Of a DNA stretch of 64,000 nucleotides, positions 5,901 to 23,811 are shown piece after piece. The DNA comes from Candidatus Rokuibacteriota bacterium (GTDB taxonomy: Bacteria > Methylomirabilota > Methylomirabilia > Rokubacteriales > CSP1-6). A program made the position numbers and the translations under genes. The number at the start of each line of letters is the position of its first letter. The first letter of the stretch is position 1. The stretch spans positions 93,637 through 157,636 of the forward strand of contig QHSX01000039.1 in NCBI GenBank assembly GCA_003221695.1, given 5' to 3'. The notes under the pieces were generated by a model that saw only the letters and a list, made by a program, of their open reading frames with translations, did not search any database and was not told the origin of the DNA.

Positions 5901-7172
5901 ATGGCTGAGATGACGGATATATCCGAGTTCGAGTCGCCGCTCTACCGCACCGCGCTCGTTCAACTCGACCGGGTGGCAGCCCGGCTCGACCTCGAGTCTA
6001 ACATCCACGAGAGGCTCCGCCATCCCAGACGGGCCCTGGTGGTCTCGATTCCGGTCCGGATGGACGACGGGAACACCAAGGTTTTCCGGGGGTATCGAGT
6101 CCAGCACAGCACGGTGCTGGGGCCCACCAAGGGCGGCCTCCGTTACGACGCCGACGTCAACCTGGGCGAGGTCACCGCCCTGGCGATGCTCATGAGCTGG
6201 AAGTGCGCCCTGGCCGGACTCCCTTACGGCGGCGCCAAGGGAGGGGTCCGCTGCAACCCGAGAGCAATGTCGGTGACGGAGCGTGAGAACCTCACCCGTC
6301 GATACACCGTCGAGATCATGCTCGTGATCGGGCCCGACCACGACATCCCGGCCCCGGACCTCGGGACCGACGAGCAGACGATGGCGTGGATGATGGACAC
6401 CTACTCGATGACCCAGGGCAAGACCGTCCCCGGGATCGTCACCGGCAAGCCGCTCATCGTCGGCGGCTCCGCCGGGCGGCGGGAAGCCACGGGCCGGGGC
6501 ATCGTGTACGCCCTCTACCAGGCGGCGCGCCACCTCAGCCAGCCGCTCCGCGGGCAGCGCGTCGTCGTCCAGGGGTTCGGCAACGTCGGCAGCGTCGCGG
6601 CCCGCCTGCTCTGGCGTGAAGGCTGTGTGATCTCCGGCGTGGGCGACGTCAAGGGCGGCATCGTCAACCCGCACGGGATCGATATCCGCCAGCTCGAGGC
6701 TCACGTCGCCGAGGCGGGCACCGTCGCGGGGTTCCCCGGCACGGAGCCGGTCTCGAACGCCGAGCTCCTTGAGCAGCCGTGCGACATCCTGGTGCCGGCC
6801 GCGATCGGCTCCCAGATTCGCGAGGACAACGCCGACCGCATCAAGGCGACGATCGTCGCCGAGGGGGCCAACGGGCCGACGACCCCGGAGGCCGACGCGA
6901 TCCTGCGCGACCGAGGGGTGACGGTGATCCCCGACATCCTCGCGAACGCCGGCGGCGTCATCGTCTCGTACTTCGAGTGGGTCCAGGGGCTCCAGTACTA
7001 CTTCTGGCGCGAGAGCGAGATCACGACACGGCTGCAAGAGATCATGACGCGCGCCTTCAACCGCGTCTGGGCGCTCGGTGCCAAGGAAGGCACGGACCTC
7101 AGGACGGCCGCCCTCATGGAGGGCGTCCGTCGCGTTGCGGAAGGCTACCGGGTGCGGGGACTCTACCCTTAA
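5901..7172 (+). CDS. gdhA: Glutamate dehydrogenase (Glu/Leu/Phe/Val dehydrogenase family)
   Basis: 423 aa from MAEMTD...; GGAKGG and GFGNVGS motifs; the upstream part of the track ORF is 5'-leader artefact. Confidence 0.85.
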   Translation: MAEMTDISEFESPLYRTALVQLDRVAARLDLESNIHERLRHPRRALVVSIPVRMDDGNTKVFRGYRVQHSTVLGPTKGGLRYDADVNLGEVTALAMLMSWKCALAGLPYGGAKGGVRCNPRAMSVTERENLTRRYTVEIMLVIGPDHDIPAPDLGTDEQTMAWMMDTYSMTQGKTVPGIVTGKPLIVGGSAGRREATGRGIVYALYQAARHLSQPLRGQRVVVQGFGNVGSVAARLLWREGCVISGVGDVKGGIVNPHGIDIRQLEAHVAEAGTVAGFPGTEPVSNAELLEQPCDILVPAAIGSQIREDNADRIKATIVAEGANGPTTPEADAILRDRGVTVIPDILANAGGVIVSYFEWVQGLQYYFWRESEITTRLQEIMTRAFNRVWALGAKEGTDLRTAALMEGVRRVAEGYRVRGLYP

Positions 7173-8500: not shown

Positions 8501-9842
8501 TCTGACCCTTCAGTTTCCGGAGGTGCTGTCGGGCGACGTCCACCCAGTCCTTCTCGGACTGGAGCGGCGAGGCGAGCTGGATGTAACGCTCCCAGTGGGT
8601 GATGGCTTCCTTGGGATCGATCTTCTCGTAGACGAGGGCCATGTTGTAGAGCGCGCCGGTGTGCGCGTTGTCCACCTCGATCACGCGCTTGTACTCGTCC
8701 ACCGCCTCCTTGTACAGGCCCTTCTCCTCGTAGACCTCGCCGAGCCCCATCCGCGCCTCGACGAGCTGCGCGTCGAGCTCGATCGCCTTCTTGTAGGCGT
8801 TGACGGACTCGTAGTAGAGCCCCTTCTCCGAGTAGTAGATCTTGCCGAGGCTCAGATAGACCTTGGGGTTGACCGGGTTGAACACGAGCGCCTTCTGGTA
8901 CGCCGCGATCGCCGCGTCGGTCTCACCCTTCGCGGCGCGCGCGTCCCCCAGCCCGACGTGGGCGTCGGCATAGAAGGGTCGGAGCTCGATCGCCTTGTTG
9001 TACGCCTCGACGGCCTGGTCGAAGAGGCGCCGGGGCGCCGCGAGGAACAGGTCCCCGAGCGCCTTGAACGGCTCGGGGTACGCCGCGTCGAGCTGGGTCG
9101 ACGCACGGAATTGCGCGGCCGCCTTCCAGCGGTTGCCGAGCGCCTGGTGGACCGCCCCGAGGGTGTAGTGCGCGACGACGAAGTTGGGGTCGGCCTCGAT
9201 CGCCCGTGCAAGCAGGTCCACCGCGGTCTCGTTGCCGTCCTGGGTCCCGCGCTGGAGCGCGAGCGCGCCCCGAGCGAAGAGCTCGAACGCGCGCAGCGAC
9301 CGCGTCGGCAGCCCCGCGCGCTCGATCCGCGCGGTCTCGGCGGGCGTGACCGGGATCTTGAGGGTCCGCGCGTAGGCCATCGGCAGGCCCGCGAGCTTCA
9401 CGAGGAGCTCGCCCTCCGGCGCCACGACCGGCTCGAGCTGCACCGTCTCGACCCCCGTCGCCTTGACGTCGAAAAGCCGCGGCTGGATCACGAGCTCCGT
9501 GGACCGTCGGGTCATCGTGCCAAACAGCGCGGCGTCGGCGCGCACTGCACGCGCCGCCTGAGAGAGTGCCGCCTCGCCCCACGCCTCTGGCTGGCCGTAG
9601 GCGCGCAGGCGCGACCGCTCGATCTCAACGAACGCCGGGTGCTGCGCGAGCCCGAGCGACAGGACCTGGGCGATCGCCTCGCCGATCCACTGCTCCTCGC
9701 GGTCGAGCGCGCTCGCGTCGAAGGGCGCGATCAGGACGATGCGCGGCTTGACGCTCGGCGCCGCGTCGAGAGACAACGAGAGCACGATCAGACTCCCGAG
9801 CACCGGGACCCCGAGCCTCCACCGCCACCCGCGTCCACGCAT
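8490..9842 (-). CDS. TPR-repeat protein with signal peptide (BatC-like), last gene of the MoxR/vWA operon
   Basis: 450 aa from MRGRGWRWRLGVPVLGSLIVL...; multiple TPR units (AYNKAIELRPFYADAHVGLG...); ATGA overlap with the upstream vWA gene. Confidence 0.75.
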   Translation of the reverse strand: MRGRGWRWRLGVPVLGSLIVLSLSLDAAPSVKPRIVLIAPFDASALDREEQWIGEAIAQVLSLGLAQHPAFVEIERSRLRAYGQPEAWGEAALSQAARAVRADAALFGTMTRRSTELVIQPRLFDVKATGVETVQLEPVVAPEGELLVKLAGLPMAYARTLKIPVTPAETARIERAGLPTRSLRAFELFARGALALQRGTQDGNETAVDLLARAIEADPNFVVAHYTLGAVHQALGNRWKAAAQFRASTQLDAAYPEPFKALGDLFLAAPRRLFDQAVEAYNKAIELRPFYADAHVGLGDARAAKGETDAAIAAYQKALVFNPVNPKVYLSLGKIYYSEKGLYYESVNAYKKAIELDAQLVEARMGLGEVYEEKGLYKEAVDEYKRVIEVDNAHTGALYNMALVYEKIDPKEAITHWERYIQLASPLQSEKDWVDVARQHLRKLKGQIKE

Positions 9843-12800
9843 CACCGGACCTCCTTCCGCTTCCCTCCCCGTCGGAGGAGACCCACCACCCATCCGAAGG
9901 CACCCGGGCCGAGACGGCGCAGCCCGATGTCCGGGATTAACAGAACCGCGACGAGCCCGACGAGCCACGGCCAGACCTCCACCGTGATGCGGGACCGCCG
10001 CCGCCCCTTGAGGAAGGCGTCGCGCGGGGTCTCGAGCGCCGACCCGCCCGTGAGCTCCGCCAGCTCGCGGAGGAGTGCCTCGTCCACCCCGAGGTCTCGC
10101 AGCTCCTGGGCGTAGGGTACCACCAGCCCCGCGAGCTGCGAGCCGATGACCCGATCGCCACGTCGCTGCGCCATGCCGACCAGGTACACGCCCTCCTGCG
10201 TGACCGGGAAACGACCGCGGTAGCGGCCCGGCCCCACCTGCTCGAGGTCGATCACGGTGCGCTCCCGGTTGGGCGCGACGACTCCCACCTGGGAGTCCAG
10301 GAAGTTGATGAACTCGCCCTTGGTGTCGACAGCGTCGACCACGATCTCACCGAGATCCTCGTGCCGCTCGACGAGCGCCACCGTGTCGCTGCGCGACCCG
10401 CTCCGCAGCGTCCAGCGAACGAGCTGCGACCAGAACTTGTTGAAGTCACGCCAGCGGAGCCAGAGGACCGCCCACTTCGCCTTGGCGTCGGACGTGAAGG
10501 CCGCCGTGCGACCGAGCCCGTACCGCCACGTCGCGAGCACCGGGTCCTCCTGATGGCTCATCAAGACCAGCTCGGCCGTGGACTTGAGCGTGGTCGCGAC
10601 GTAGCCGCCGAGCGGCGGCACGTTCTTCCAGTCGATCTCCTGCATCGCTTCGTGGTTGGGCGACGTGAGCTGGGGCTTGAAGGGCTGCTCGATGAGCGAG
10701 GCCTTCGACGCGAGCTGCGTCTCGAGCGTGAAGATACGCGGGATCGTCTGCGAGTCCTCGGTGTAGTAGAAGCGCCCTCTGCCCCACTTGGCGATATCCA
10801 CCATCAGCTGGACGTCGGCGTCCTTGCCGATCGCCACCGTCGACACGGTGATCTTGTCCTTCGCCATCCGGCGCAGCAGCCCCTGGAAGTCGCCGCGCGT
10901 CATCTGGCCGTCGGAGAGGAAGATGACGTGCTTGAGGAGCGCGGGCCGCTCGAACAGGACCGCGTACGACTCCTTGAGCGCCGGGTAGCCGTCCGTGCCC
11001 CCGCCCGCCTTGATCGTCGCGACCGCGTGATGGATCGCCTGCCGGTCCTTCGCCGACCTCACCGGCGCGTCCCAGATGAACTCGGTGTCCCAGCTCATGA
11101 CGCCGACTTCGTTGCGCTCGTCGAGGAGGTCCACGACGAGGTGGGCGGCCTCCTTCGCCAGGTCGAGCTTGGTGACCTTCTCGTCGGTCGCCATCGCCAT
11201 CGAGCCGGAACGGTCGATCGAGAGCACGACGGCCAGGCTCGGGATCTCGACCTTCTGCTTGACCTCCATCGTGACCGGCAGCGCCTCCTCGATCGGCGTG
11301 CGGTAGTAGCCGCCGAGCCCGAAGCTCTCCTCGCCACCGACCATCAGGAGCCCGCCGCCTCCATCGCGGACGTAGTCGCGGATGTGGGCCATCTGCGTCC
11401 GCGTGAGCTTGAGCGAGGAGACGTTGGAGAGGATGACGCCGTCGTATTTCTGCAGGCCCGCGACGTCGCTCGGGATCTGCGGCGGCTCGACGACGGTGAC
11501 CTCAATGTTCTGCGACCGGAGCGCGCCGGCGAGGGACTGCGCGTGGCTCCGGTCGCGGTCGGCGAGGAGCACCTGCGGCCGGCCGCGGACAACCACCGTC
11601 CCGACGGCGCGGTTGTTCTCTTCGATCGTGTCGCCCTCGACCTCGATCAACGCCTGGTAGACGTGGATGCCGCTGGCGTCGAGCGCCTGACGGTAGCCGA
11701 AGACGTTCTTGCCCGCGCTGAGCCGCACCACCTGCGAGCCGAGAAACTCGCCGTTGCGGAAGAGCGAGAGCCGGCCCTGTGCGTCCTTGTGACTCCACGC
11801 GACCACCTTCGCCTGGAACGGCTCGCCGTATTTGACCTCCTGCGGGAGCACGAGCGCCTCGGCCACCACTTCCTGCGTGAAGGTCAACGGCGCGGCGATG
11901 TAGTGGATGTCGCTGCCGGCGTTCTTGGCGGCCTGGGCTCCGGCGAGCGCGTTGCCGGCGTTCTGCCGCCCGTCCGTCAGCATCACGATCCGGTTCGCCT
12001 GCCCCGGCGGCAGCATCGCGAGGGCGAGCTGGATCGCCTGGAAGATGTTGGTCCCGCGCCCGTCCACCTGCGCCTTCGGCCGGTCCACCGTGGGCCGGTT
12101 CGCGAGCTGCTGGTCGACGACGGCGGCGTCGCCGAACACGATGAGGCCTTGCCGGTCGCCCGGCCTCATCGACCTGACGCCTTCGGCAACGAACCGGTAC
12201 GCGCGCTCGCGCGCGGCAAGGCTCACGCTGTCCGACACGTCGAGGAGAAAGACGACGTTCATCCGGTCCACCCAGCGCGGCAGCGCGGGACGCGCGAGCG
12301 TCAGGAAGAGGACGACGATGAGCGCGCCCCGGAGTGCCAGCGCCCAGCGGTCGCCGGCGCCCGTCGGCGCCTGGAGCCGCCCCGCGGTCTGGCGCCGCCA
12401 GTAGAGCAGCCCCTCGACCGCGAGCAAGACTGCGGCGATGAGCACGAACAGCGGCCAGAGCTCACGTTGGATCGGCACGGGCGCCGGCGGACCGACGGCG
12501 GGCCCAGACGACGCCGGCAGGGGGCGCGGCTGGAGATTCGATTCCTCGGTGTCCATCAGATTCACCGCGACCCGCGTCTCCCCCCGCGCGCTCGACAGCG
12601 TGTAGACGCCAACCTCGTCGGTCTCGGTGAAGCTCACCATGCCGCGGGTCACGAGCGCCTTGACGACGCGCCCGCGCGGGGTCGTCACGTTCACGCTCGT
12701 CACGCCGTGCGCCACCGGGAGGAGGATCGGCTGGCCGGCCGCGAGCTGCAGGCTCGACTGGTCGAGCGCCGCCGGGTGGAGCCAGCGCAGGCTGTTAGAG

Positions 12801-14218
12801 AGGATCAGCGGGAAGGCGACGCGCAGCGGGAAGTCCGTCTTGAAGAGGTCGAAGCCGATGAAGATCGCCTTCCGGTCGGGCTCCTCGAGCGCGTAGATGA
12901 GCGGGCCGCCGACGGCCTCCACGAGCGGCCGGCCCGCGGCGAGCGGGCGGATCCGGATGGCGTCTTCGATCGCGACCTTCGCGAACTCAACGTGGCGCAT
13001 GATCGGATGCGCGCGATCCCAATCCATGATGGTGGGTCGCTCGATCCTGCCGAGGACTTCGAGCGGGACGTCCGCGGGTACCGCGTTCACAAACACGAAG
13101 CGCCCCGCGCCCACGCGCGGCGGCGTGATGGAGTCCAGGACGACGACGTCCGCGTCGGCCATGCCACCCGCGTACTGGTCCGACGTGCGAACCTCGAGCG
13201 ACACCTGCGGGTCCGTCCTGAGGACCTTCTCGAGGAAGAGGTTCCCCGGGCTCACGAGGAGGACGTTGATCTTGCGCGGCGGCGGCAGCACCGCGTAGGC
13301 GACGTCGTCCACCGCCAGGTCGTCGTCGATCCGGAGGCGCGCCGTGACGAGCCCACCGCCGCCGTGGCTGAAGGGCAGGACGATCGAGCGCCGGACGCTC
13401 GGCTCGAGCGTCACGTCCTTCTCGGCGATCGTCCGGCCGTCGAGCTCCAGGGCGAACGTGAAGGTCTGAGCCTCGGGCGAGTAGTTCACGAGCGAGACGA
13501 ACGCCTGGTAGTCGGACCCGCCGACGGAGATCTTCCGGATCGCCAGGCTCGCGATGCCGACGTTCCAGCTCCGTCGCCCCACGCCGACCCAGCGGATGCG
13601 CGGGTCGGCGACGGCATGGGCCGAGGGCTGCGCGAACGCGCCGTCGGTGAAGACGTGGATCTCGGCGCGCGGGTCGGCGCCGACCAGGGCGCGCGCGGTC
13701 CGGACGGCCTCCGCGAGGCGGGTCGGGAGGTCCCGTGCCTGCGCCTGGCCGATGGCCGCCAGGGCACGCTGGCGGTCGCGCCCCAGCGCGGCCGTCACCT
13801 TCGGCTGGACGCCCGTCTCGATCACCATCACCTCGGCGCCCTCGCCCAGGCGACGCACGAGCTGGACCGCCGCCGCCTGCGCGATGTCGAAGCGCGACGG
13901 ACTGACGTCCCTCGCCTTCATGGAGGCCGAGGTGTCGAGCACCACCACGACCTTGCGAGCGCCGTCGCCCATCACCGTGACGGCCGGCCGCGCGAGGGCG
14001 AGGGACAGCGCGAGGAGGGCGAGGATCTGGAGAATCAGCAGCGGATCGCGCTGGAGCCGCTGGAAGAACGCCGACGCCTCGCGGTCGCGCAGCGACGGAT
14101 CCCACAGGAGCAGGCTCGGCACCCGCCGCTCGCGCCGGCGAATCTTGAGGAAGTAGAGCAGGATGAGCGGGAGGACCAGCGCCGTGAGAGCGAACGCGAG
14201 CGGCGAGAGGAAGCTCAT
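9842..14218 (-). CDS. Giant (1458 aa) membrane-anchored protein with BatA-type N-terminal domain and three von Willebrand factor A domains (fused BatA/BatB-like)
   Basis: N-terminus LILLYFLKIRRRERRVPSLLLW (BatA_N); vWA cores at VVVVLDTSASM, VVFLLDVSDSVS and LSIDRSGSMA; C-terminal TM segment. Confidence 0.8.
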   Translation of the reverse strand: MSFLSPLAFALTALVLPLILLYFLKIRRRERRVPSLLLWDPSLRDREASAFFQRLQRDPLLILQILALLALSLALARPAVTVMGDGARKVVVVLDTSASMKARDVSPSRFDIAQAAAVQLVRRLGEGAEVMVIETGVQPKVTAALGRDRQRALAAIGQAQARDLPTRLAEAVRTARALVGADPRAEIHVFTDGAFAQPSAHAVADPRIRWVGVGRRSWNVGIASLAIRKISVGGSDYQAFVSLVNYSPEAQTFTFALELDGRTIAEKDVTLEPSVRRSIVLPFSHGGGGLVTARLRIDDDLAVDDVAYAVLPPPRKINVLLVSPGNLFLEKVLRTDPQVSLEVRTSDQYAGGMADADVVVLDSITPPRVGAGRFVFVNAVPADVPLEVLGRIERPTIMDWDRAHPIMRHVEFAKVAIEDAIRIRPLAAGRPLVEAVGGPLIYALEEPDRKAIFIGFDLFKTDFPLRVAFPLILSNSLRWLHPAALDQSSLQLAAGQPILLPVAHGVTSVNVTTPRGRVVKALVTRGMVSFTETDEVGVYTLSSARGETRVAVNLMDTEESNLQPRPLPASSGPAVGPPAPVPIQRELWPLFVLIAAVLLAVEGLLYWRRQTAGRLQAPTGAGDRWALALRGALIVVLFLTLARPALPRWVDRMNVVFLLDVSDSVSLAARERAYRFVAEGVRSMRPGDRQGLIVFGDAAVVDQQLANRPTVDRPKAQVDGRGTNIFQAIQLALAMLPPGQANRIVMLTDGRQNAGNALAGAQAAKNAGSDIHYIAAPLTFTQEVVAEALVLPQEVKYGEPFQAKVVAWSHKDAQGRLSLFRNGEFLGSQVVRLSAGKNVFGYRQALDASGIHVYQALIEVEGDTIEENNRAVGTVVVRGRPQVLLADRDRSHAQSLAGALRSQNIEVTVVEPPQIPSDVAGLQKYDGVILSNVSSLKLTRTQMAHIRDYVRDGGGGLLMVGGEESFGLGGYYRTPIEEALPVTMEVKQKVEIPSLAVVLSIDRSGSMAMATDEKVTKLDLAKEAAHLVVDLLDERNEVGVMSWDTEFIWDAPVRSAKDRQAIHHAVATIKAGGGTDGYPALKESYAVLFERPALLKHVIFLSDGQMTRGDFQGLLRRMAKDKITVSTVAIGKDADVQLMVDIAKWGRGRFYYTEDSQTIPRIFTLETQLASKASLIEQPFKPQLTSPNHEAMQEIDWKNVPPLGGYVATTLKSTAELVLMSHQEDPVLATWRYGLGRTAAFTSDAKAKWAVLWLRWRDFNKFWSQLVRWTLRSGSRSDTVALVERHEDLGEIVVDAVDTKGEFINFLDSQVGVVAPNRERTVIDLEQVGPGRYRGRFPVTQEGVYLVGMAQRRGDRVIGSQLAGLVVPYAQELRDLGVDEALLRELAELTGGSALETPRDAFLKGRRRSRITVEVWPWLVGLVAVLLIPDIGLRRLGPGAFGWVVGLLRRGGKRKEVR

Positions 14219-15102
14219 ACCAGTAGGCGGCCTCGGATCTGCGCGAGCACGAACTCCTCGACCGGGGTGTCGGTCGTCACCCGGTGGTACCCGATCTCCT
14301 GGGTGCGGCTGAACGTCTCGACGCGCTCGAGGAATTGCCGAAGGCGCTCGCGGTAGGTACGGAGCGCCTCGCCGTCGACGGAGAGCTCGCGGGTCTCGCC
14401 GGTCTCGGCGTCGACGAGCCGCAGATCGCCGGCGAGCTCGGGGTCCATCTCCTCGGGCGCCAGCACGTGGACCAGGTGGACGTCGAACCGCCGCTCGAGC
14501 AGGGCGCGCACCCCCGTCTCGAACCCGGCGGGATCCATGAGATCGGAGACCACGACGGCGAGCCCCGGCTCGCGCGCTCGCATGGCGTAGTTGCCGAGCC
14601 CGTCGTTGAGACTCGTGCCGCCGGCAGGCCCGACGCGACCCAAGAACTCGAACAGGTTCACCACCTGGTTACGCCCGCGTGTGGGCGACCAGCCCTCGGC
14701 CACGCGCTCGCGCAGCACGCCCACTCCCACGCGCTCCATGCCGACCAGGCCAACGAAGCCGAGCGCGGCCGCGAGCCGCGCGCCGTACTCGAGCTTCGTC
14801 GGCGCGCCGAAGTCCATCGACGCCGAGGCGTCCAGGAGGAGGTGCAGGCACAGGTCCTCCTCGTCCACGAAGAGCTTGACGTGGAGCCGGTCGAGGCGCC
14901 CGTAGATGTTCCAGTCGACGTAGCGGAGGTCGTCACCTACCCCGTAGGCGCGGTAGTCGCAGAACTCGACGCTGTGCCCGCGGCGCGGGCTACGCCGTTC
15001 CCCCCTCACGCGTCCGCGAAACACGCGACGCGAGAGCAGCGCCAGGCGCTCCAGCTGCGCCAGGAACTCCGACGAGAAGGGGGCGGGGCGCGTGGTGGGC
15101 AT
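14215..15102 (-). CDS. DUF58-family protein (vWA-like), MoxR partner
   Basis: 295 aa; HLLLDASASM motif and DUF58 context between MoxR and the vWA genes. Confidence 0.75.
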   Translation of the reverse strand: MPTTRPAPFSSEFLAQLERLALLSRRVFRGRVRGERRSPRRGHSVEFCDYRAYGVGDDLRYVDWNIYGRLDRLHVKLFVDEEDLCLHLLLDASASMDFGAPTKLEYGARLAAALGFVGLVGMERVGVGVLRERVAEGWSPTRGRNQVVNLFEFLGRVGPAGGTSLNDGLGNYAMRAREPGLAVVVSDLMDPAGFETGVRALLERRFDVHLVHVLAPEEMDPELAGDLRLVDAETGETRELSVDGEALRTYRERLRQFLERVETFSRTQEIGYHRVTTDTPVEEFVLAQIRGRLLV

Positions 15103-15105
15103 GAA

Positions 15106-16557
15106 CTAGCGCTCGTCGAGCGCCTGGAAGTAGTTCCGGATCTGGTCGTGATAGTCGCGCGGCACTTGCTCGCGCGTGATCGCGTCCTCCATCATCTTGC
15201 GGTACTGCCCGACGACCCCGAGGTACATGAGGCGCGAAGGCATCTGGCCTGCCCGGCCGGTGAGGTTCGTGTCGTAGCCCTCCTTCTTGCCGCGACGCGA
15301 TTCGCCCTCGACGCCGACGTCGTAAGGACTGGCGCGGAGCCGAGCCGTCGCGTCGCCCTTCGGCATGGTGCTCCGTCCCTTGCCCGGCAGGAGCCCCTCG
15401 CCCTCCCCGAAATCCTGGTCCTCGGGCCCGTTACCCTCCCCGCCCCGGGCGTGGTCGCGCCCCCGGACGCCGCGCTCGTTCTCACGGCCGCCGCGCAGGC
15501 CCTTCCCCGAGCGTTGCGCCTCCTCCATCGCACGCATCTTGTCGAGGGCGCGCTGCATGGCCTCGAGGGCACGGTCCGTCTGCCCGCCCTCGAGCGCCTC
15601 CATCCCCTCGGTCGCGTCGCCGCTCCAGTTACCGCCCTTGCGTCCGAGGCGCTCCATCTCGTCGAGCAGCTCGCGGAGCTTCCGGGGCGAGATGTCCGGA
15701 GAGAGCCCGCTCAGCAGCGACTTGGACTTGCGGTAGACCATCTTGTACTGGGAGCTCGTGAAGTCCGACTGGAGGTCCGGCAGCCTATCCACCTGCTCCA
15801 GCAGCTTGAGCCGCTCGTCGCCCTTCTTCAGGAAGCTGTTGAAGTCGGGCCGCTGGCTCGACAGCGCGGTGTCCTTGAAGATCGCCGAGAGGTCGCCCGC
15901 GGTCGACCCGCTGCCCGTACCACTCTTCTGGGCGAAGTCGCGCTCCTCGACCGACGGGCGCTTGAGCGGCGTCGTCTGCAGCGGCCGCGATCGCTCCTCC
16001 ATCAGCTCGGTCGTGGTCCGCTCCTCACGCTGCTCCGGCTCGGTGGACGGGGTGAAGTCGCCGATCGTTCCCAGCGGCAGGTGCATCGCCGGCGCGAACG
16101 CCAGGACCAGCCCCGCGAGGAGCGGCGCCGGCAGCCAGCGCCCTTCGAGCGGAATCGCGCGGCGCACGATCCATCGCGACTCGAGGGTGGAGACGCGCGC
16201 CGCGGTGTCGGCGACGAGCGCGTCCACGAGCGGCGTTCGGTCGGGGCGGTCGGCCCACTCGAGCACGGTGGCGACGCGGTCGGCGAGGCCGAAGGCGCGG
16301 TCGGCGAGCCGCGCGACATCCTGAACGATGACTCGCTTGGTGAACCCGTAGGTGGTGCCGGCGATCGCGCCCAGCGCGACGAGCGCGGGAGCCACGGCGA
16401 GCGCGGCGAGACCCAGGGCGGCCTTGAAGACGAGCACGGCCGCGGCGACGAGAGCGCCCCAGAACGCGCCGCGCAGGCCCCAGTGCTCGGCGCGGCGGAC
16501 CCGGACCTCCCGCGCGACCCGCCGGACAAGGACTTCGATCGTCTGCGGATGATCCAT
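15106..16557 (-). CDS. Hypothetical membrane protein with a long low-complexity charged C-terminal region
   Basis: 483 aa; N-terminal TM helices, then a region rich in R/E/G/K; no recognisable catalytic motifs. Confidence 0.55.
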   Translation of the reverse strand: MDHPQTIEVLVRRVAREVRVRRAEHWGLRGAFWGALVAAAVLVFKAALGLAALAVAPALVALGAIAGTTYGFTKRVIVQDVARLADRAFGLADRVATVLEWADRPDRTPLVDALVADTAARVSTLESRWIVRRAIPLEGRWLPAPLLAGLVLAFAPAMHLPLGTIGDFTPSTEPEQREERTTTELMEERSRPLQTTPLKRPSVEERDFAQKSGTGSGSTAGDLSAIFKDTALSSQRPDFNSFLKKGDERLKLLEQVDRLPDLQSDFTSSQYKMVYRKSKSLLSGLSPDISPRKLRELLDEMERLGRKGGNWSGDATEGMEALEGGQTDRALEAMQRALDKMRAMEEAQRSGKGLRGGRENERGVRGRDHARGGEGNGPEDQDFGEGEGLLPGKGRSTMPKGDATARLRASPYDVGVEGESRRGKKEGYDTNLTGRAGQMPSRLMYLGVVGQYRKMMEDAITREQVPRDYHDQIRNYFQALDER

Positions 16558-16572
16558 GGGGTCCTCTCGCGC

Positions 16573-17586
16573 TCAGCGAAGAAAGACTTCTCTACCGCTG
16601 GCCGTAATGGCCTCTGCAGCCTCCACGATCTGGCCGATCAGGGTGTCGGCGTCCACCCCCTCGGCCTCGCCCTCGAAGTTCAGGATGACCCGGTGACGCA
16701 GGGCAGGCATGGCGAGGGCCTTGATGTCCTCCGCGCTCACGTTGTAACGCCCCTCCGCGAGGGCCCGGACCTTGGCGCCCAGCACGAGCGCCTGGGCGCC
16801 GCGCGGGCTGGCGCCGTACCGCACGAACCGACGCGAGACCTCGGGCGAGCCGGCCCAGGACGGGTGCGTCGCCATCACGATGGTGGACGCCAGGTCGCGG
16901 ACGTGCGAGGCGATCGGCACCTCGCGGATCAGCTCGCGGAGCGAAAGCACCGTGGGCCCGTTCATCACGCGGCTCACCGTCACGTGCCGTGATTGAGTGG
17001 TGCGGTCGATGATCGCGTTCAGCTCGTCGATTGCGGGGTACCGAACCCGCAGCTTGAACAGGAACCGGTCCAGCTGCGCCTCGGGCAGCGGATAGGTGCC
17101 CTCCATCTCGATCGGGTTCTGGGTCGCAAGCACGAAGAAGGGCGCGGGGAGCGGCCGCGAGGCGCCTCCGACGGTGACGGCGCCTTCCTGCATCCCCTCG
17201 AGCAGCGCCGACTGGGTCTTCGGCGTGGCGCGGTTGATCTCGTCCGCGAGGAGGATGTGGGCGAAGATCGGCCCCTGCTGGAACTGGAAGTGCTTTCGGC
17301 CGTCCACGTCCTCAACGATGATGTTCGTACCGATGATGTCGGCGGGCATCAGGTCGGGCGTGAACTGGATCCGCGAGAACGACAGCTCGAGGCCTTCGGC
17401 GAGCGTCTTGATGAGCAGCGTCTTGCCGAGACCCGGCACGCCTTCGAGGAGGACGTGACCGCCGGCGAACATGGCGGTCAGGACGTGGGTGATGATCTCG
17501 CGGTGGCCGACGATGACCTTCTCGACCTCCGCCCGCAGCGCCTCGAACGCGGTGACGAACGCTTCCACCCGAGCGTCCTGAGTCAT
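16573..17586 (-). CDS. moxR: MoxR-like AAA+ ATPase
   Basis: Walker A GVPGLGKT and Walker B LLADEINRA; 337 aa; heads the vWA/DUF58 operon. Confidence 0.9.
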   Translation of the reverse strand: MTQDARVEAFVTAFEALRAEVEKVIVGHREIITHVLTAMFAGGHVLLEGVPGLGKTLLIKTLAEGLELSFSRIQFTPDLMPADIIGTNIIVEDVDGRKHFQFQQGPIFAHILLADEINRATPKTQSALLEGMQEGAVTVGGASRPLPAPFFVLATQNPIEMEGTYPLPEAQLDRFLFKLRVRYPAIDELNAIIDRTTQSRHVTVSRVMNGPTVLSLRELIREVPIASHVRDLASTIVMATHPSWAGSPEVSRRFVRYGASPRGAQALVLGAKVRALAEGRYNVSAEDIKALAMPALRHRVILNFEGEAEGVDADTLIGQIVEAAEAITASGREVFLR

Positions 17587-19043: not shown

Positions 19044-19313
19044 ATGTCTGAGTGCGGAGCGTCAGGACCCTCATCGATCGAGTGTCGGCAGATCGCCGAA
19101 CTCTTGGGCGAGTATCTCGAGGGAACTCTCCCCCAACAGACGCGCGAACTGCTGGAGTGGCACATCGAGGGCTGCGCCCCCTGCGTCGCCTTCGTCAACA
19201 CGTACCGCGGCACGATCACCGCCGCCCGCAAGCTCCGCGACGTCGACATCCCTCCCGAGCTGAAGAAACGGCTGCTGGCCGTTCTCCGCGCCCAGCGCGC
19301 CGCTAAGCCGTAA
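19044..19313 (+). CDS. Putative zinc-finger anti-sigma factor (zf-HC2/RsrA-like, 89 aa)
   Basis: H-x3-C-x2-C motif (HIEGCAPC) plus upstream Cys; no sigma-factor gene adjacent. Confidence 0.6.
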   Translation: MSECGASGPSSIECRQIAELLGEYLEGTLPQQTRELLEWHIEGCAPCVAFVNTYRGTITAARKLRDVDIPPELKKRLLAVLRAQRAAKP

Positions 19314-20367
19314 CCCGGATCACCGGCTCCGAAACAACCTCACCGATCTCCCAGCACTGCTCCCCGCGGCGGCGGAAGGCGTCCATCACGCCCCGCGCGC
19401 GAGCAGGCGCGACCGAGAAGAGGAGGCCGCCCGACGTCTCCGATTCCGTGAGCAGCGAAACGAGCGGCGCCGGGATCGACGGATCGATGCGCAGGCCCTC
19501 GCCGAAGACGGTGTCGACGTGCCGGCGATTACGCTTCATTCCGCCGCTCCAGTGGCCGGCCTCGGCGAGCTCGCGCGTGCCGGGAAGCAGGGGCAAGCGG
19601 GAGGCGCTGATCGCGATGCCGACGGCCGACGCCCTCACCATCTCACCGGCGTGACCGAGAAGACCGAAGCCCGTGATGTCGGTCGCTCCGCGGGCGCCGG
19701 CCTCGCGCGCGACCTCCGCCGCCACACGATTCAGCCTGAGCATGCTCGCGACGGCGCCCTGGAGCACCGCCAGGCTCGCGGCATTGTCCTTCGCGGCGGT
19801 CGTGATCACGCCAGTCCCCAGCGGCTTCGACAGGAAGAGCCGGTCGCCCGACCGGAGGCCGCCCTTGATGAGGATGCGGTCGGGGTGGACGCGTCCGGTC
19901 ACGCAGAGACCGTACTTGGGCTCGGCGTCGACGACCGTGTGCCCCCCCGCGATCACGCCGCCCGCCTCCGCGACCTTGTCACTGCCTCCCCGGAACACCT
20001 CCGCGATGATCGCCTTTGACATGTCGCGCGGGAAGCCCGCGACCGCGAGGGCGAACAGCACCTCGCCGCCCATGGCGAAGACATCGGACATGGAGTTCGT
20101 GGCCGAGATCGCGCCCCAGGTCCACGGGTCGTCGACCACCGGCGGGAAGAAGTCCACCGTCGCGACGATCGCCACGTCGGCGGTGATGCGGTAGACCGCG
20201 GCGTCGTCGGCCGCCCCCAGACCGACGAGCAGGTCCGGCTGCGCGCGACCCAGGGGCTTGAGCGCCTCGAGCACCTCCTGGAGATCTCCAGGAGCCATCT
20301 TGGACGCTCAGCCGGCGCAGGTGGCGTACGAGGTGAGTCGGACCTCCGTATGGGTGTGACTGGTCAT
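19303..20367 (-). CDS. selD: Selenophosphate synthetase SelD, selenocysteine-containing (UGA at 20308-20310)
   Basis: Extending the track ORF upstream through an in-frame TGA gives MTSHTHTEVRLTSYATCAG-U-ASKMAPGDLQEV..., collinear with E. coli SelD [21 protein letters not shown], with Sec at the Cys17 position; the rest of the protein has SelD/AIR-synthase-like motifs (DAAVY, DFFPP, NSMSDVFAMGG). Confidence 0.85.
20274..20293 (-). promoter_or_regulatory. Candidate SECIS hairpin in selD
   Basis: Perfect palindrome CUCCUGGA-GAUC-UCCAGGAG (8-bp stem) starting 14 nt after the UGA. Confidence 0.5.
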
Positions 20368-20374
20368 CGCGGTC

Positions 20375-21280
20375 TTAAGACGGCTCCGCCGGGGACTCCG
20401 ATTCGACGAACTGGACGAAGGCCTGGGCGAGCGGTGAGCGGCTCCGGTCGCGGTGGGTGACGAGATAGAACGCGCGCCCGACGCGCAGGTCGTGCACCCG
20501 GAGACAGAAGAGGAGCCCCGCGCGGCACTCGTCCTCCACGGCCCGCTTCGAGACGAGCGCGATCCCGACGCCCGCGCGCACGCCCTGCTTGATCGCCTGG
20601 GTCGAGCCCATCTCACCGACGACACGGAACGCCGACAGATCGGTGTCCGCCTGGTCGAGCGCCCGCTCGAGCGCCTCGCGCGAGCCCGAGCCCTGCTCGC
20701 GCACGATGAGGGGCTCGCGCCGAACGTCGGCGAGCGTCACGGTCTTGCGGTTGGTCCACGCGTGCCCCGCCGGGACGACGAGGACGAGCTCGTCGGCCAT
20801 CAACTCGCGCGCCAGCAGGGTCTTCGGACCGGGCGGCGCGCCGACGACGCCCACCTCGGCGCGTCCCGCCTCCACCCACTCGGTGACTTGGCGGCTCGAG
20901 CCGATCAGGAGGCAGATCGAGATGTCCGGATACTTGCCCTTGAACCGTCCGATCAGCGCGGGCAGCACGTACTCGCCCGGGATCGTGGAGCCGCCGACGA
21001 TGAGCTCGCCCGACATGCGTCCCTGGAACTGGTCGAGCGCCTGCTGCGCCTCGCGCTGGAGCGCGAGCATGCGGCGCGCGTAACCGAGCAAGAGCCGGCC
21101 CGCGTGGGTCGGCGTGGCGCCGCGGCCGAGCCGGTCGAGGAGCGGGACGCCGAGCTCGTCCTCGAGGGCGCGGACGTGTTCGGAGACGGTCGGCTGCGTC
21201 AGCGAGAGGGCGTCGGCGGCGCGGGAGAAGCTCCCCAACTCGGCCACCTTCGCGAACACCTCGAGGCGGCGAAGATCCAT
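20375..21280 (-). CDS. LysR-family transcriptional regulator
   Basis: N-terminal HTH (LEVFAKVAELGSFSRAADALSLTQPTVS) and LysR substrate-binding domain; 301 aa; stop lies 7 nt upstream of the selD start. Confidence 0.85.
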   Translation of the reverse strand: MDLRRLEVFAKVAELGSFSRAADALSLTQPTVSEHVRALEDELGVPLLDRLGRGATPTHAGRLLLGYARRMLALQREAQQALDQFQGRMSGELIVGGSTIPGEYVLPALIGRFKGKYPDISICLLIGSSRQVTEWVEAGRAEVGVVGAPPGPKTLLARELMADELVLVVPAGHAWTNRKTVTLADVRREPLIVREQGSGSREALERALDQADTDLSAFRVVGEMGSTQAIKQGVRAGVGIALVSKRAVEDECRAGLLFCLRVHDLRVGRAFYLVTHRDRSRSPLAQAFVQFVESESPAEPS

Positions 21281-21308: not shown

Positions 21309-21521
21309 TCAGTGGCAGCCGCAGCCGCCGCCGCAGCAGCCGCCGGTCGACATGGTCGACGACGGCGTGAAGCTACCGGCGGCCCGGAGACCGAACACCG
21401 ACAGCTTGCGCGTCACATTCGGGCTCGCGCACGCCCGGCACGCGACGGCGGTCGCGTGCCCGGCGACGTACGTCTCGAACTCCTCTCGGCACTCGGTGCA
21501 GCGGTACTCGTAGATCGGCAT
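21309..21521 (-). CDS. FmdB-family zinc-ribbon protein
   Basis: MPIYEYRCTECREEFE...CRAC... and a Cys/Gly-rich tail; 70 aa. Confidence 0.7.
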   Translation of the reverse strand: MPIYEYRCTECREEFETYVAGHATAVACRACASPNVTRKLSVFGLRAAGSFTPSSTMSTGGCCGGGCGCH

Positions 21522-21524
21522 CTG

Positions 21525-21728
21525 CTACTCACCGCCGCGCTGGACGTAACTCTTGACGAACTCCTCGGCGTTCTCCTCGAGGATGTCGTCGATCTCGTCC
21601 AGGAGCTTGTCGATGTCTTCCTTGATCTTCTTGCCCTTCTTGGCGAGTTCCGGGCTGCCGGCAGCCCCGTCACCCCCCTCGGCGGGCTTGGTGGGCTTGG
21701 TCTCCTTCTTCTTCTGCTGCTCAGCCAT
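21525..21728 (-). CDS. pup: Prokaryotic ubiquitin-like protein Pup homolog (C-terminal GGE)
   Basis: 67 aa; disordered N-terminus; C-terminus KLLDEIDDILEENAEEFVKSYVQRGGE matches the Pup consensus (DDLLDEID.VLE.NAE.FV..YVQKGGQ/E). Confidence 0.75.
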   Translation of the reverse strand: MAEQQKKKETKPTKPAEGGDGAAGSPELAKKGKKIKEDIDKLLDEIDDILEENAEEFVKSYVQRGGE

Positions 21729-21775
21729 CGCGCCCTCCCTTGAGGCATTCTACCATCGTTCCCGGGCTTTCCCCG

Positions 21776-22912
21776 TCAACGACGGAAGTGTTTGCTGAGC
21801 GTCAAGGTCTGGTGCTGGTAGGAGGAGCCGAGGCCGGCTCCGTAGACCCGCTCCGGGCGGGATCGGAGCCGCTCGAATCCCACCTTGAACGAGGTCTGGC
21901 CGTCGTAGATCAGGAACGGCACCTCCCGCGCCCTCACTTCCATCACCACCTTCGTGCCCAGCACGCTCCCGTCGCCGAAGCCGAAGCCAGGGTCGAAGAA
22001 GCCCGCGTAGTGGGTGCGGATCTCTCCCGCACCCGCGTCGTAAACGACCATCTCCGCCGCGAATTCCGGCGGCACACGGATGCGCTCCTTGGACACGAGG
22101 ATGTAAAAACGGTTGGCTTCCAGAATATACGCGTCGCGGGCGGCCCACTTGATCGGCTCCCAGAATTCGGCCGGGTCGTAGTGGGCGAGCCGACCGAGGT
22201 CCACCGCCGGTGGGTTCGGCTGGGCGCGGTAGCCGATGATTGAGCCCGTCAGCCGTCCGGAGAGGTCGACGCCCATACACAGGCCGTCGTTGAAGGCCGC
22301 GCGCTCGACGGGGATCGGACGCCCGTCGTCGTCGTAGAGCAGCGGCGTCTCGCGGTACATCCGTGCCAGTTCGGCGTCGGTCACCGCGGTTTGCCCGGAG
22401 AGGAGACGGAGCTGATTGAGCGAGGCGCCCGCGTGCACACGGATCGGGAAGGACTGCGGCGAGACCTCGAGATAGAGCGGCCCTTGATACCCCGGGCGAA
22501 TCTCGTCGAAGCGCGGCGTCGCGTCGGTGATGACCCGTGTGAAGATGTCGAGGCGGCCCGTCGTGCTCTTGGGATTCGAGCGGCCCCTCACCCCTTCCGG
22601 GAGCGCCAGCGACTCGAGGAGTGGCACGAGGTAGACCGAGCCGCGCTGCAGCGTCGCGCCAGACTCGAGCGGCAACCGCTCGATGACCAGGTCGCTGTCG
22701 GTCGGGTCGTGCGTCTCGAGCCGGCTCTGGACCGTCTGCCGGAACGGCAGGAAGCTCGCGCGGAGCTGATACGCGCTCGGGCCGAGCCGGAGGTCGAGGC
22801 TCGCGGGCTGGTACTGGTCGTCGCCGATCGGCTGCTCCGCCTGGACCCACCCGTCGCGGACGGCGGCCCGAAGCTCGTGGTCGGGCAGGACGCCGCCGGG
22901 CACGTCGCTCAC
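21776..22912 (-). CDS. 2'-deoxycytidine 5'-triphosphate deaminase family protein (long form, PF06559-like)
   Basis: GTG start at 22912 (GTGA overlap with the thrB stop); GVLPDHEL...QPASLDLRLG...NPKSTTGRLDIFTRVI...GPLYLEVSP motifs; the N-terminal half of the track ORF is artefact. Confidence 0.7.
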   Translation of the reverse strand: MSDVPGGVLPDHELRAAVRDGWVQAEQPIGDDQYQPASLDLRLGPSAYQLRASFLPFRQTVQSRLETHDPTDSDLVIERLPLESGATLQRGSVYLVPLLESLALPEGVRGRSNPKSTTGRLDIFTRVITDATPRFDEIRPGYQGPLYLEVSPQSFPIRVHAGASLNQLRLLSGQTAVTDAELARMYRETPLLYDDDGRPIPVERAAFNDGLCMGVDLSGRLTGSIIGYRAQPNPPAVDLGRLAHYDPAEFWEPIKWAARDAYILEANRFYILVSKERIRVPPEFAAEMVVYDAGAGEIRTHYAGFFDPGFGFGDGSVLGTKVVMEVRAREVPFLIYDGQTSFKVGFERLRSRPERVYGAGLGSSYQHQTLTLSKHFRR

Positions 22913-23811
22913 CCTGTCACGCGGCTGAGGGCGCCCGACGTGTCCACGTCGAACGCGCGCGCGGCGCCGGGGATTCCCGCGCGGCGCAGCGCCGCCTCCA
23001 TCGCGGCCGCGACCGGCGCACCGTCGCCCGCGACCACGGCGAGAAGCGACGGTCCGGCGCCACTCAGGACGCAGCCGAGGGCCCCCGCGACGCGCGCCGC
23101 TTTGACGACGTCGGGCATCCACGGGAACAGCCGGAGCCGGTAGGGCTCGTGCAGCCGATCCTCGAGGGCCACGCCGAGCGCCTGTGGCGGCCCCACCCAC
23201 AGGCTCGCGAGGAGCAGGGCCACGCGCTGGAGGTTGAAGACCGCGTCCCCGTGGAGCACCGACGCCGGGAGGACGGCCCGTGCGTCGGCGGTGGCGTTGG
23301 TGACGTCCGGGATGAGGACGATCCAGCGCAGACCCGCGGGCACCGGGAGCGCAACCGCCGTCACCGTCGAGCCGCTCGCGCAGGCGACGGTGAGCCCGCC
23401 GAAGATCGCCGCGGCGACGTTGTCGGGATGCCCTTCGGCGCGCGCGGCGAGCGCGAGGAGGGCGTCTTTCGTGAAGGGCGCGCCGAGCAGGGCGTTGCCC
23501 GCCATGAGGCCGCTCACCCACGCCGCGGCGCTCGAGCCGAGCCCGCGCGCCGAGGGCACGCGGTTCGTACACGCGAGCGCGCACCCCCCGAACGGTCGCC
23601 CCGCTGCGTCGTAAGCGAGCTTCACGCCGCGCGCGACGAGGTTGTCGGCGCTCCGCGGCAGTCGTGCGGCGCCCTCGCCCTCGATCTCGACGCTCACCCC
23701 CTCGGCTTCGGCGGCGACGACCTCGTTGCGGAGTGTCCACGCCAGGCCGAGGGCGTCGAAGCCGGGGCCGAGGTTGGCGGACGTCGCGGGAACGCTGACG
23801 TGGACGCGCAC
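22909..23811 (-). CDS. thrB: Homoserine kinase (GHMP family)
   Basis: PATSANLGPGFDALGLA motif; 300 aa. Confidence 0.85.
   Translation of the reverse strand: MRVHVSVPATSANLGPGFDALGLAWTLRNEVVAAEAEGVSVEIEGEGAARLPRSADNLVARGVKLAYDAAGRPFGGCALACTNRVPSARGLGSSAAAWVSGLMAGNALLGAPFTKDALLALAARAEGHPDNVAAAIFGGLTVACASGSTVTAVALPVPAGLRWIVLIPDVTNATADARAVLPASVLHGDAVFNLQRVALLLASLWVGPPQALGVALEDRLHEPYRLRLFPWMPDVVKAARVAGALGCVLSGAGPSLLAVVAGDGAPVAAAMEAALRRAGIPGAARAFDVDTSGALSRVTG

Follow-up and report, generated by a model that had tools for sequence, protein, structure and literature searches.

Members of the Rokubacteriales, an abundant and uncultured order of soil bacteria, probably possess a complete Pup-proteasome system whose genes are spread over at least two loci. 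The stretch of DNA that was analysed, hereafter the window, is 64 kb in length and harbors the pup gene. On order-level data together with one MAG, we consider it likely that this gene encodes a canonical Pup, that the ligase is encoded elsewhere, and that pup is co-expressed with a Ruc-like proteostasis partner. The part of this explanation that concerns a canonical Pup can, when taken alone, be held with high confidence. Pupylation is usually described as an actinobacterial, one-locus system, and in these organisms gene context alone would mislead, pointing either to an orphan tag or to a tag-less proteasome. The features of the window that are relevant to this account are as follows.

22909 to 23811, minus strand: thrB (homoserine kinase), the first gene of thrB-dcd-pup-fmdB (TIGR00191, 241 bits)
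21776 to 22903, minus strand: two-domain dCTP deaminase (DCD) of 375 aa, 5' of pup (DCD_N, DCD_C; NF005734, 432 bits)
21733 to 21739, minus strand: Shine-Dalgarno-like GGGAGGG, 4 nt 5' of the pup ATG (read directly from the sequence; putative function)
21525 to 21728, minus strand: pup, a 67-aa prokaryotic ubiquitin-like protein with a GGE end (PF05639, TIGR03687)
21522 to 21524, minus strand: the 3-nt pup-fmdB spacer CAG, from the TAG stop to the fmdB ATG, which implies translational coupling (from the sequence)
21309 to 21521, minus strand: fmdB/ruc-like gene of 70 aa, with an N-terminal CxxC-N16-CxxC zinc ribbon and the C-terminal tail GGCCGGGCGCH (PF09723, TIGR02605)
20375 to 21280, minus strand: LysR-family regulator of the selenium-metabolism-associated type, 28 nt 3' of fmdB (NF040786, 303 bits; cut-off 250)
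19303 to 20298, minus strand: selD (selenide, water dikinase), the last gene of the same-strand run (TIGR00476, 319.5 bits)

As judged by both curated models, the 67-aa ORF is a genuine Pup. It scores 79.3 bits against the Pfam family Pup (PF05639; cut-off 27) and 63 bits against the NCBIfam model (TIGR03687; cut-off 41.45), and the ORF is far beyond chance. The full protein is MAEQQKKKETKPTKPAEGGDGAAGSPELAKKGKKIKEDIDKLLDEIDDILEENAEEFVKSYVQRGGE, and its C-terminal end reads ...EEFVKSYVQRGGE. Residues 31-67 can be aligned without a gap to the M. tuberculosis Pup chains of 3M9D, 7PX9, 4BJR and 7OY3, which are complexes of this Pup with Mpa, PafA and Dop solved by crystallography or imaging. In this test of family membership the terminus of the window protein, QRGGE, follows the conserved helix that binds the coiled coil of Mpa and the groove of PafA and Dop. 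The original prediction had described a Pup homolog with a GGE terminus and a near-canonical binding helix that was to be verified by careful alignment, and it is upheld on each of these counts. Because of the GGE end, this Pup should be ligatable without prior deamidation.

The genes thrB, DCD, pup, fmdB, lysR and selD are found on one strand and are separated by short gaps. The spacer between dcd and pup is 47 nt in length and contains the GGGAGGG motif, while the junction between pup and fmdB reads ...GGT GAG TAG CAG ATG.... No Rfam family or promoter-like site was found near pup. The gene 5' of pup had been assigned earlier to the dCTP-deaminase family, and this agrees with its 432-bit match to NF005734, a model named 2'-deoxycytidine 5'-triphosphate deaminase. 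Similarly, the gene that begins 3 nt 3' of pup had been called an FmdB zinc ribbon, and its product indeed exceeds the cut-offs of both TIGR02605 (48.6 bits; cut-off 31.3) and PF09723 (48.1 bits; cut-off 34.4). A dCTP-deaminase-family gene is always found directly 5' of the Rokubacteriales pup. It is the two-domain 375-aa DCD in window-type species, and in around half of the Rokubacteriales species it is a single-domain Dcd (PF22769, 183-210 aa) lying between thrB and pup, as in L084 (9403-9954), L066 (9356-9988), L063 (9409-9960) and L047 (4048-4650). A GHMP kinase takes the thrB position in L084 and L066. In the dcd slot, one type of enzyme seems to have been exchanged in place for another. 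Further along the window, at 9842-17586, are genes for a MoxR AAA ATPase, a DUF58 protein, a giant BatA/VWA protein (around 1458-1609 aa) and then a TPR protein, which together look like a Bat/aerotolerance-like cluster 4 kb from the pup block.

The identical Pup is present on at least 23 contigs, including NCBI MAGs, with the same gene order throughout, and the index gave 390 blocks of the collection. The Pup-bearing NCBI MAGs carry the name Candidatus Rokuibacteriota, and NCBI proteins under that name are identical to the ThrB, DCD, FmdB, LysR and SelD of the window, which is accordingly assigned to the Rokubacteriales. When pup was scanned for with one genome per species, 80 loci were obtained; almost all are from MAGs of Rokubacteria, Rokuibacteriota or Methylomirabilota, and a few of the bins were obviously misnamed. 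Among 74 Rokubacteriales species the last 38 codons of pup have a pS of 0.36 against a pN of 0.024, giving a pN/pS of around 0.07, and the C-terminal 38 residues occur in only 18 peptide variants across 74 different DNA sequences. Some 30 C-terminal residues are virtually invariant, and are nearly identical to those of the Methylomirabilales Pup that is encoded inside full Pup-proteasome clusters. The protein ends in GGE in 47 of the 80 species-level loci and in GGQ in 30. In the established pathway a GGQ terminus must be deamidated by Dop (review PMC8223512), so the frequent switching between GGQ and GGE fits a Dop-bearing lineage. In L045 (5412-5708) a frameshift deletes the VQRGGE end of pup and fmdB is intact. 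Rokubacteriales-type pup-fmdB pairs or PafA proteins are also encountered under odd MAG labels (L048, L023, L062, L081, L086 and members of the PafA clusters), namely Nitrosocosmicus, which is an archaeon, Binatia, Deferrimicrobiaceae, Saccharibacteria, Acidoferrum and Eisenbacteria. These labels on loci of the Rokubacteriales type are probably binning or labelling errors.

Within the 64-kb window no gene for PafA, Dop, Mpa or the 20S proteasome was found, as the original prediction had stated for PafA and Dop. Pfam assigned the ten largest ORFs to other families, the annotation of identical contigs was empty of such genes over the 20 kb around pup, and tblastn gave no matches in the window with either Mpa, Dop, PrcB, PrcA and PafA of Methylomirabilales or Dop, PrcB, PrcA and PafA of Rokubacteriales. 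The window pup lies neither between dop and prcB, as in a canonical locus, nor in a cluster with them. More broadly, none of 77 Rokubacteriales-type loci has a gene of the Pup-proteasome system within 10 kb on either side of pup. A homologue search with the Methylomirabilales PafA returned, among its best 120 matches, only proteins of the Methylomirabilales type with at least 72% identity, none of which was named Rokubacteria. With representative sequences and cluster names the nearest representatives were Moduliflexus, Ilumatobacteraceae and Tectomicrobia, in a search where clustering at 50% hides the target. A 464-aa group obtained with the Moduliflexus PafA query was rejected as a Rokubacterial ligase since its amino-acid composition is not that of a 70%-GC genome and one member is named Entotheonellaceae. 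The divergent PafAs P0222, P0161, P0204, P0175, P0172 and P0186 were likewise set aside, as their contexts are all of the Methylomirabilales type; it was these contexts that revealed three pup/fmdB arrangements.

The ligase of the Rokubacteriales came from a metagenome scan with a PafA alignment, which yielded a distinct clade of 451-aa PafA proteins whose identity to the Methylomirabilales enzyme is 61-62%. In loci L108-L116 (GC 65-69%) the order is mpa-dop-prcB-prcA-pafA without pup, and the PafA sequences are exactly those of NCBI entries called "Pup--protein ligase [Candidatus Rokuibacteriota bacterium]" (PYN47596.1, PYM24095.1, PYM46534.1 and others). The Rokuibacteriota PafA clusters have 1549, 373 and 308 members, and the neighboring genes are named at NCBI as proteasome ATPase, PafA2 and proteasome subunit alpha of Rokuibacteriota. 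Ten further contigs have ruvBAC-yebC-...-SBP followed by mpa-dop-prcB-prcA-pafA-glgB-glgX-gdh, and contain neither pup nor the FmdB motif. The proteins exceed the cut-offs of the NCBIfam equivalog models throughout (Dop 623 against 492, PafA 630 against 551, Mpa 753 against 505, PrcB 310 against 192 and PrcA 320 against 139). In these Rokubacteriales clusters prcB comes directly after dop, with a 4-nt overlap in most gene calls and no pup, and in some relatives pafA stands alone (L121, L123-L125, L127 and L128).

The two kinds of locus are brought together by MAG AR4 (QHSC01), which has pup-fmdB on QHSC01000078.1 (L057) and the proteasome cluster on QHSC01000137.1 (L191), allowing that bins can be contaminated. 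L128 and the window-type contig L001 come from the same JGI sample. Counting against a link between the loci, the GC content of the proteasome loci is around 3% below that of the pup loci. Accession numbers lie near one another (PYM432xx and PYM465xx), a proximity that is only suggestive. Tetranucleotide correlation makes the proteasome contigs compatible with a Rokubacteriales origin, although we give this little weight because the measure is dominated by GC. A synteny between the left end of the window and the proteasome cluster was also considered, as the window gdh (5910-7169) has 74% amino-acid identity to the gdh of L187 (15748-17010), which is found 4.4 kb 3' of pafA; it was rejected because only gdh matches.

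Several of the loci gathered along the way have unusual ligase genes or insertions. L086 (5913-12195; CAZPDF010000006.1, labelled Saccharibacteria) encodes a Pup that is 69% identical overall, with an N-terminus that resembles that of the Rokubacteriales Pup. Its pup lies between two divergent genes of the Pup-ligase family (694 and 516 aa; 29-34% identical to PafA/Dop), with mpa before them, and neither 20S subunit genes nor fmdB were found there within 10 kb. With a GC content of 42-51%, it was rejected as a possible Rokubacterial type of ligase. In the Methylomirabilales, the Dop and PafA encoded in a single cluster share 58% identity (L090 12640-14124 and 15823-17181). Here too are found 464-aa hybrid proteins (P0221-P0240) at the dop position that are 81% identical to PafA over residues 1-405 (L095 363-1757; L096 444-1838 and 3551-4945; L097 278-1672), and in L096 the ligase-prcB-prcA unit is present twice in tandem. 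Such Dop/PafA hybrids could reflect either gene conversion between paralogues or a systematic assembly chimera. Finally, L101 (1913-10001; PQAM01000010.1, Methylomirabilota) has around 8 kb between prcA and pafA, holding an ECF sigma/anti-sigma pair, an HMA protein, an MmeI-like fused restriction-modification gene and HEPN/nucleotidyltransferase pairs, and this insert appears to be a defence island within the proteasome cluster.

The original prediction regarded the window Pup as an orphan and left two alternatives, that the ligase is encoded elsewhere or that the protein has a different partner. A true orphan would mean a genome devoid of PafA, Dop and the proteasome, with Pup re-purposed to work with FmdB or another partner. 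This would agree with the empty surroundings of pup, both in the window and within 10 kb in the 77 loci, and with the PafA homologue and representative searches, whose best matches included none named Rokubacteria. However, PafA, Dop, Mpa, PrcA and PrcB named Rokuibacteriota do exist in large clusters, both loci are present in AR4, the exact sequence that binds Mpa and PafA is kept under strong purifying selection, and GGQ termini are frequent, such that we judge a true orphan to be very improbable. On the data for the order and for AR4, the orphan claim does not hold at the level of the genome: the Rokubacteriales clusters and AR4 point to a canonical locus elsewhere, with pup translocated. 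Since the Rokubacteriales proteasome genes are at another locus, the orphan status would be a local impression rather than a property of the genome. Of the two alternatives, it is that of a ligase elsewhere which is supported, in the form of the mpa-dop-prcB-prcA-pafA cluster. Still less credible, to the point of being almost negligible, is the idea that this short reading frame does not produce Pup, or that it is a relic in decay that stayed behind when the cluster relocated. The unusual location and the 3'-end frameshift in L045 could be read in this way, but there is a strong Shine-Dalgarno sequence 5' of pup, the clusters of the same order contain no other pup, and the low pN/pS, with 18 C-terminal protein variants from 74 DNA sequences, effectively refutes a remnant.

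The pairing of pup with fmdB is real and conserved, and has apparently not been described before. In 76 of the 80 species-level loci fmdB lies directly 3' of pup. Among the four exceptions, two are masked directly after pup, one is real (L070 5469-6100, where pup is followed by unrelated small membrane-like ORFs and fmdB is absent), and one is L086, a contig of another lineage. The gap between the two genes is 0-10 nt in most Rokubacteriales loci, which suggests coupled translation. The original prediction had likewise described pup as coupled to the FmdB gene. Within Rokubacteriales thrB-dcd-pup-fmdB forms a conserved core, and the pair is kept despite a different type of dcd on the 5' side or different genes on the 3' side, where some species have oxidoreductase genes instead of lysR-selD. 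An in-frame read-through fusion of Pup and FmdB across TAG-CAG-ATG (21522-21527) was rejected, as both the length and the frame of the gap vary among species. Such fusions do occur among database entries, where Q, K or Y replaces the stop (P0072, P0003, P0007, P0062 and P0605); these are error-rich read-level assemblies that were treated as artefacts and were likewise rejected as read-through.

Elsewhere in the phylum the arrangement is different. In the Methylomirabilales loci L089-L094 the order is MoCF-pup-fmdB-mpa-dop-prcB-prcA-pafA, a complete system headed by the pair. L099 has fmdB-mpa-dop-pup-prcB-prcA-pafA, in which fmdB is directly 5' of mpa and pup is in the actinobacterial position. 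L104 has the plain order dop-pup-prcB-prcA-pafA, and L098 and L100, relatives of Methylomirabilis at genus level, have a proteasome cluster with neither pup nor fmdB nearby. The zinc-ribbon gene hence adjoins mpa when pup is elsewhere and pup when mpa is elsewhere, and so tracks the system in three arrangements. The FmdB motif was found in none of 90 PafA-anchored loci (945 kb), of which 80 came from a subsequent metagenome scan and are for the most part canonical dop-pup-prcBA loci, actinobacterial in look, while the other 10 are the Rokubacteriales proteasome contigs. On this sample, the fmdB association is phylum-specific.

The window FmdB has its two CxxC motifs, C8xxC11 and C28xxC31, near the initiator methionine and around 17 residues apart. 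They are followed by a low-complexity tail, rich in glycine and cysteine, that contains CCGGGCGCH, that is, four cysteines and a histidine. The N-terminal ribbon is common to the FmdB orthologues, and exactly four cysteines are present in the tail of 72 of 74 of them (CCGGGCxCH). The genes immediately 3' of the stretch encoding this tail (21309-21350) are the selenium-associated LysR regulator and selD. To the same family belongs Ruc, the zinc-binding protein Rv0991c of M. tuberculosis, which has an N-terminal CxxC-N17-CxxC ribbon with a disordered tail and becomes a holdase chaperone upon oxidation (PMC7448276). The disordered hydrophilic C-terminal region is required for the chaperone activity, and it is only for the M. 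tuberculosis protein that zinc binding and oxidation-activated holdase activity have been shown (PMC7448276). Relatives of Ruc often adjoin chaperone and protease genes (PMC7448276). The N-terminus of Ruc scores 67.8 bits against TIGR02605, with a query taken only in part from the primers of PMC7448276. As judged from sequence, the four-cysteine tail sets the pup-linked FmdB subfamily apart from Ruc, and since the two tails are unlike, the chaperone mechanism of Ruc may not transfer.

A serious rival for the part of the explanation that concerns fmdB, which we nevertheless consider unlikely, accepts the canonical Pup and takes the neighboring fmdB as an inherited operon arrangement of small housekeeping genes that is functionally meaningless. 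Most bacterial lineages encode members of the FmdB/Ruc family (PMC7448276), and small genes may be carried along side by side with no function in common; thrB, dcd, lysR and selD are an unrelated housekeeping mix, and the absence of the FmdB motif from all 90 sampled PafA-anchored loci points the same way. Against this, 76 of 80 species keep the pair while the type of dcd and the 3' genes vary, fmdB follows the system through three arrangements (for instance beside mpa in L099), and the 0-10 nt that separate the two genes in most loci speak for coupled translation. That FmdB functions in the Pup system is, in our assessment, somewhere between rather doubtful and about evenly balanced. At the lower end of that range, and advanced here only tentatively, is the proposal that FmdB would be an additional component devoted to the Methylomirabilota Pup system, for example a zinc/thiol redox switch with Pup, Mpa or PafA as its binding partner, which would explain why it stays with pup or mpa through the three arrangements. 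As a switch, it could gate or target pupylation, for example by passing oxidatively damaged clients to tagging, or it could buffer free Pup.

We favor a split system, in which the pup of Rokubacteriales would reside apart from an mpa-dop-prcB-prcA-pafA cluster that is located elsewhere in the chromosome. By homology, PafA from the separate cluster would ligate the Pup of the window locus to lysines, Dop would remove it, and Mpa would recognise it for proteasomal degradation, as happens in Actinobacteria. The pup gene would be co-transcribed, and its translation presumably coupled, with the FmdB/Ruc-family zinc-ribbon gene, in a pairing that was probably inherited from a common ancestor shared with the Methylomirabilales. 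From its family membership and conserved linkage, FmdB would most likely serve this proteostasis pathway as well, perhaps as a zinc/thiol-switch holdase or as an adaptor that is produced together with the tag.

Pup, the Pup-proteasome system and Ruc are already known. What appear to be new are a pup that stands apart from its cluster in an abundant order of soil bacteria, a proteasome cluster without pup, and the linkage, throughout the phylum, of a Ruc-family zinc ribbon to pup or mpa; a search for literature on pupylation in Rokubacteria found nothing. The conserved coupling provides a testable link between a thiol/zinc-switch chaperone family and a tagging pathway, which until now had been connected only indirectly, by way of HrcA regulation in M. 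tuberculosis. Annotation pipelines that rely on gene neighborhood to decide whether a Pup-proteasome system is present can also draw a practical lesson from this case. Should the zinc ribbon turn out to be a functioning part of the tagging system, the case would gain in interest.

In comparison with Ruc, the window FmdB belongs to the same TIGR02605/PF09723 family, and both are small proteins with an MPxYxYxCxxC...CxxC ribbon from residue 1 and a low-complexity C-terminus. In M. tuberculosis, Ruc is induced by heat in a manner that requires the Pup-proteasome system, and the family tends to adjoin proteostasis genes (PMC7448276). However, the M. tuberculosis tail is rich in serine and free of cysteine, whereas that of the Rokubacteriales FmdB is rich in glycine and cysteine, with its four cysteines and a histidine, and linkage to pup or mpa is absent from PMC7448276, as is Methylomirabilota. 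In NC10 a sporadic presence of Dop and PafA was noted earlier, without the linkage to fmdB (PMC7947786). The Methylomirabilales/NC10 system is from the same phylum, and has an almost identical Pup C-terminus, an FmdB orthologue with 40-42% identity and a PafA with 61-62%; the difference is that pup-fmdB or fmdB is contiguous with mpa-dop-prcB-prcA-pafA there and detached in Rokubacteriales. UBact, reportedly described by Lehmann et al. in 2017, is said to comprise Pup homologues of Gram-negative phyla. It resembles the present case in that a Pup-like tag is found beyond the Actinobacteria, in a phylum of Gram-negative type, but the window protein is a bona fide Pup on both curated models, has a GGE end, and is not filed under UBact.

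The closest functional parallel is the actinobacterial system of M. tuberculosis, which has a Pup of the same family and length with the C-terminal helix LLDEIDDxLEENAExFVxxYVQxGG[E/Q]. Of the last 26 residues of the window protein, 20 are identical to the M. tuberculosis Pup, and Rokubacteriales have Dop, PafA, Mpa, PrcB and PrcA at equivalog level. In contrast to that system, the window pup is found in thrB-dcd-pup-fmdB, neither between dop and prcB nor near the cluster, and the Rokubacteriales pafA is followed by glgB and glgX with no pafBC seen adjoining. The host, too, is different, as it belongs to a Gram-negative-type soil phylum, the Methylomirabilota.
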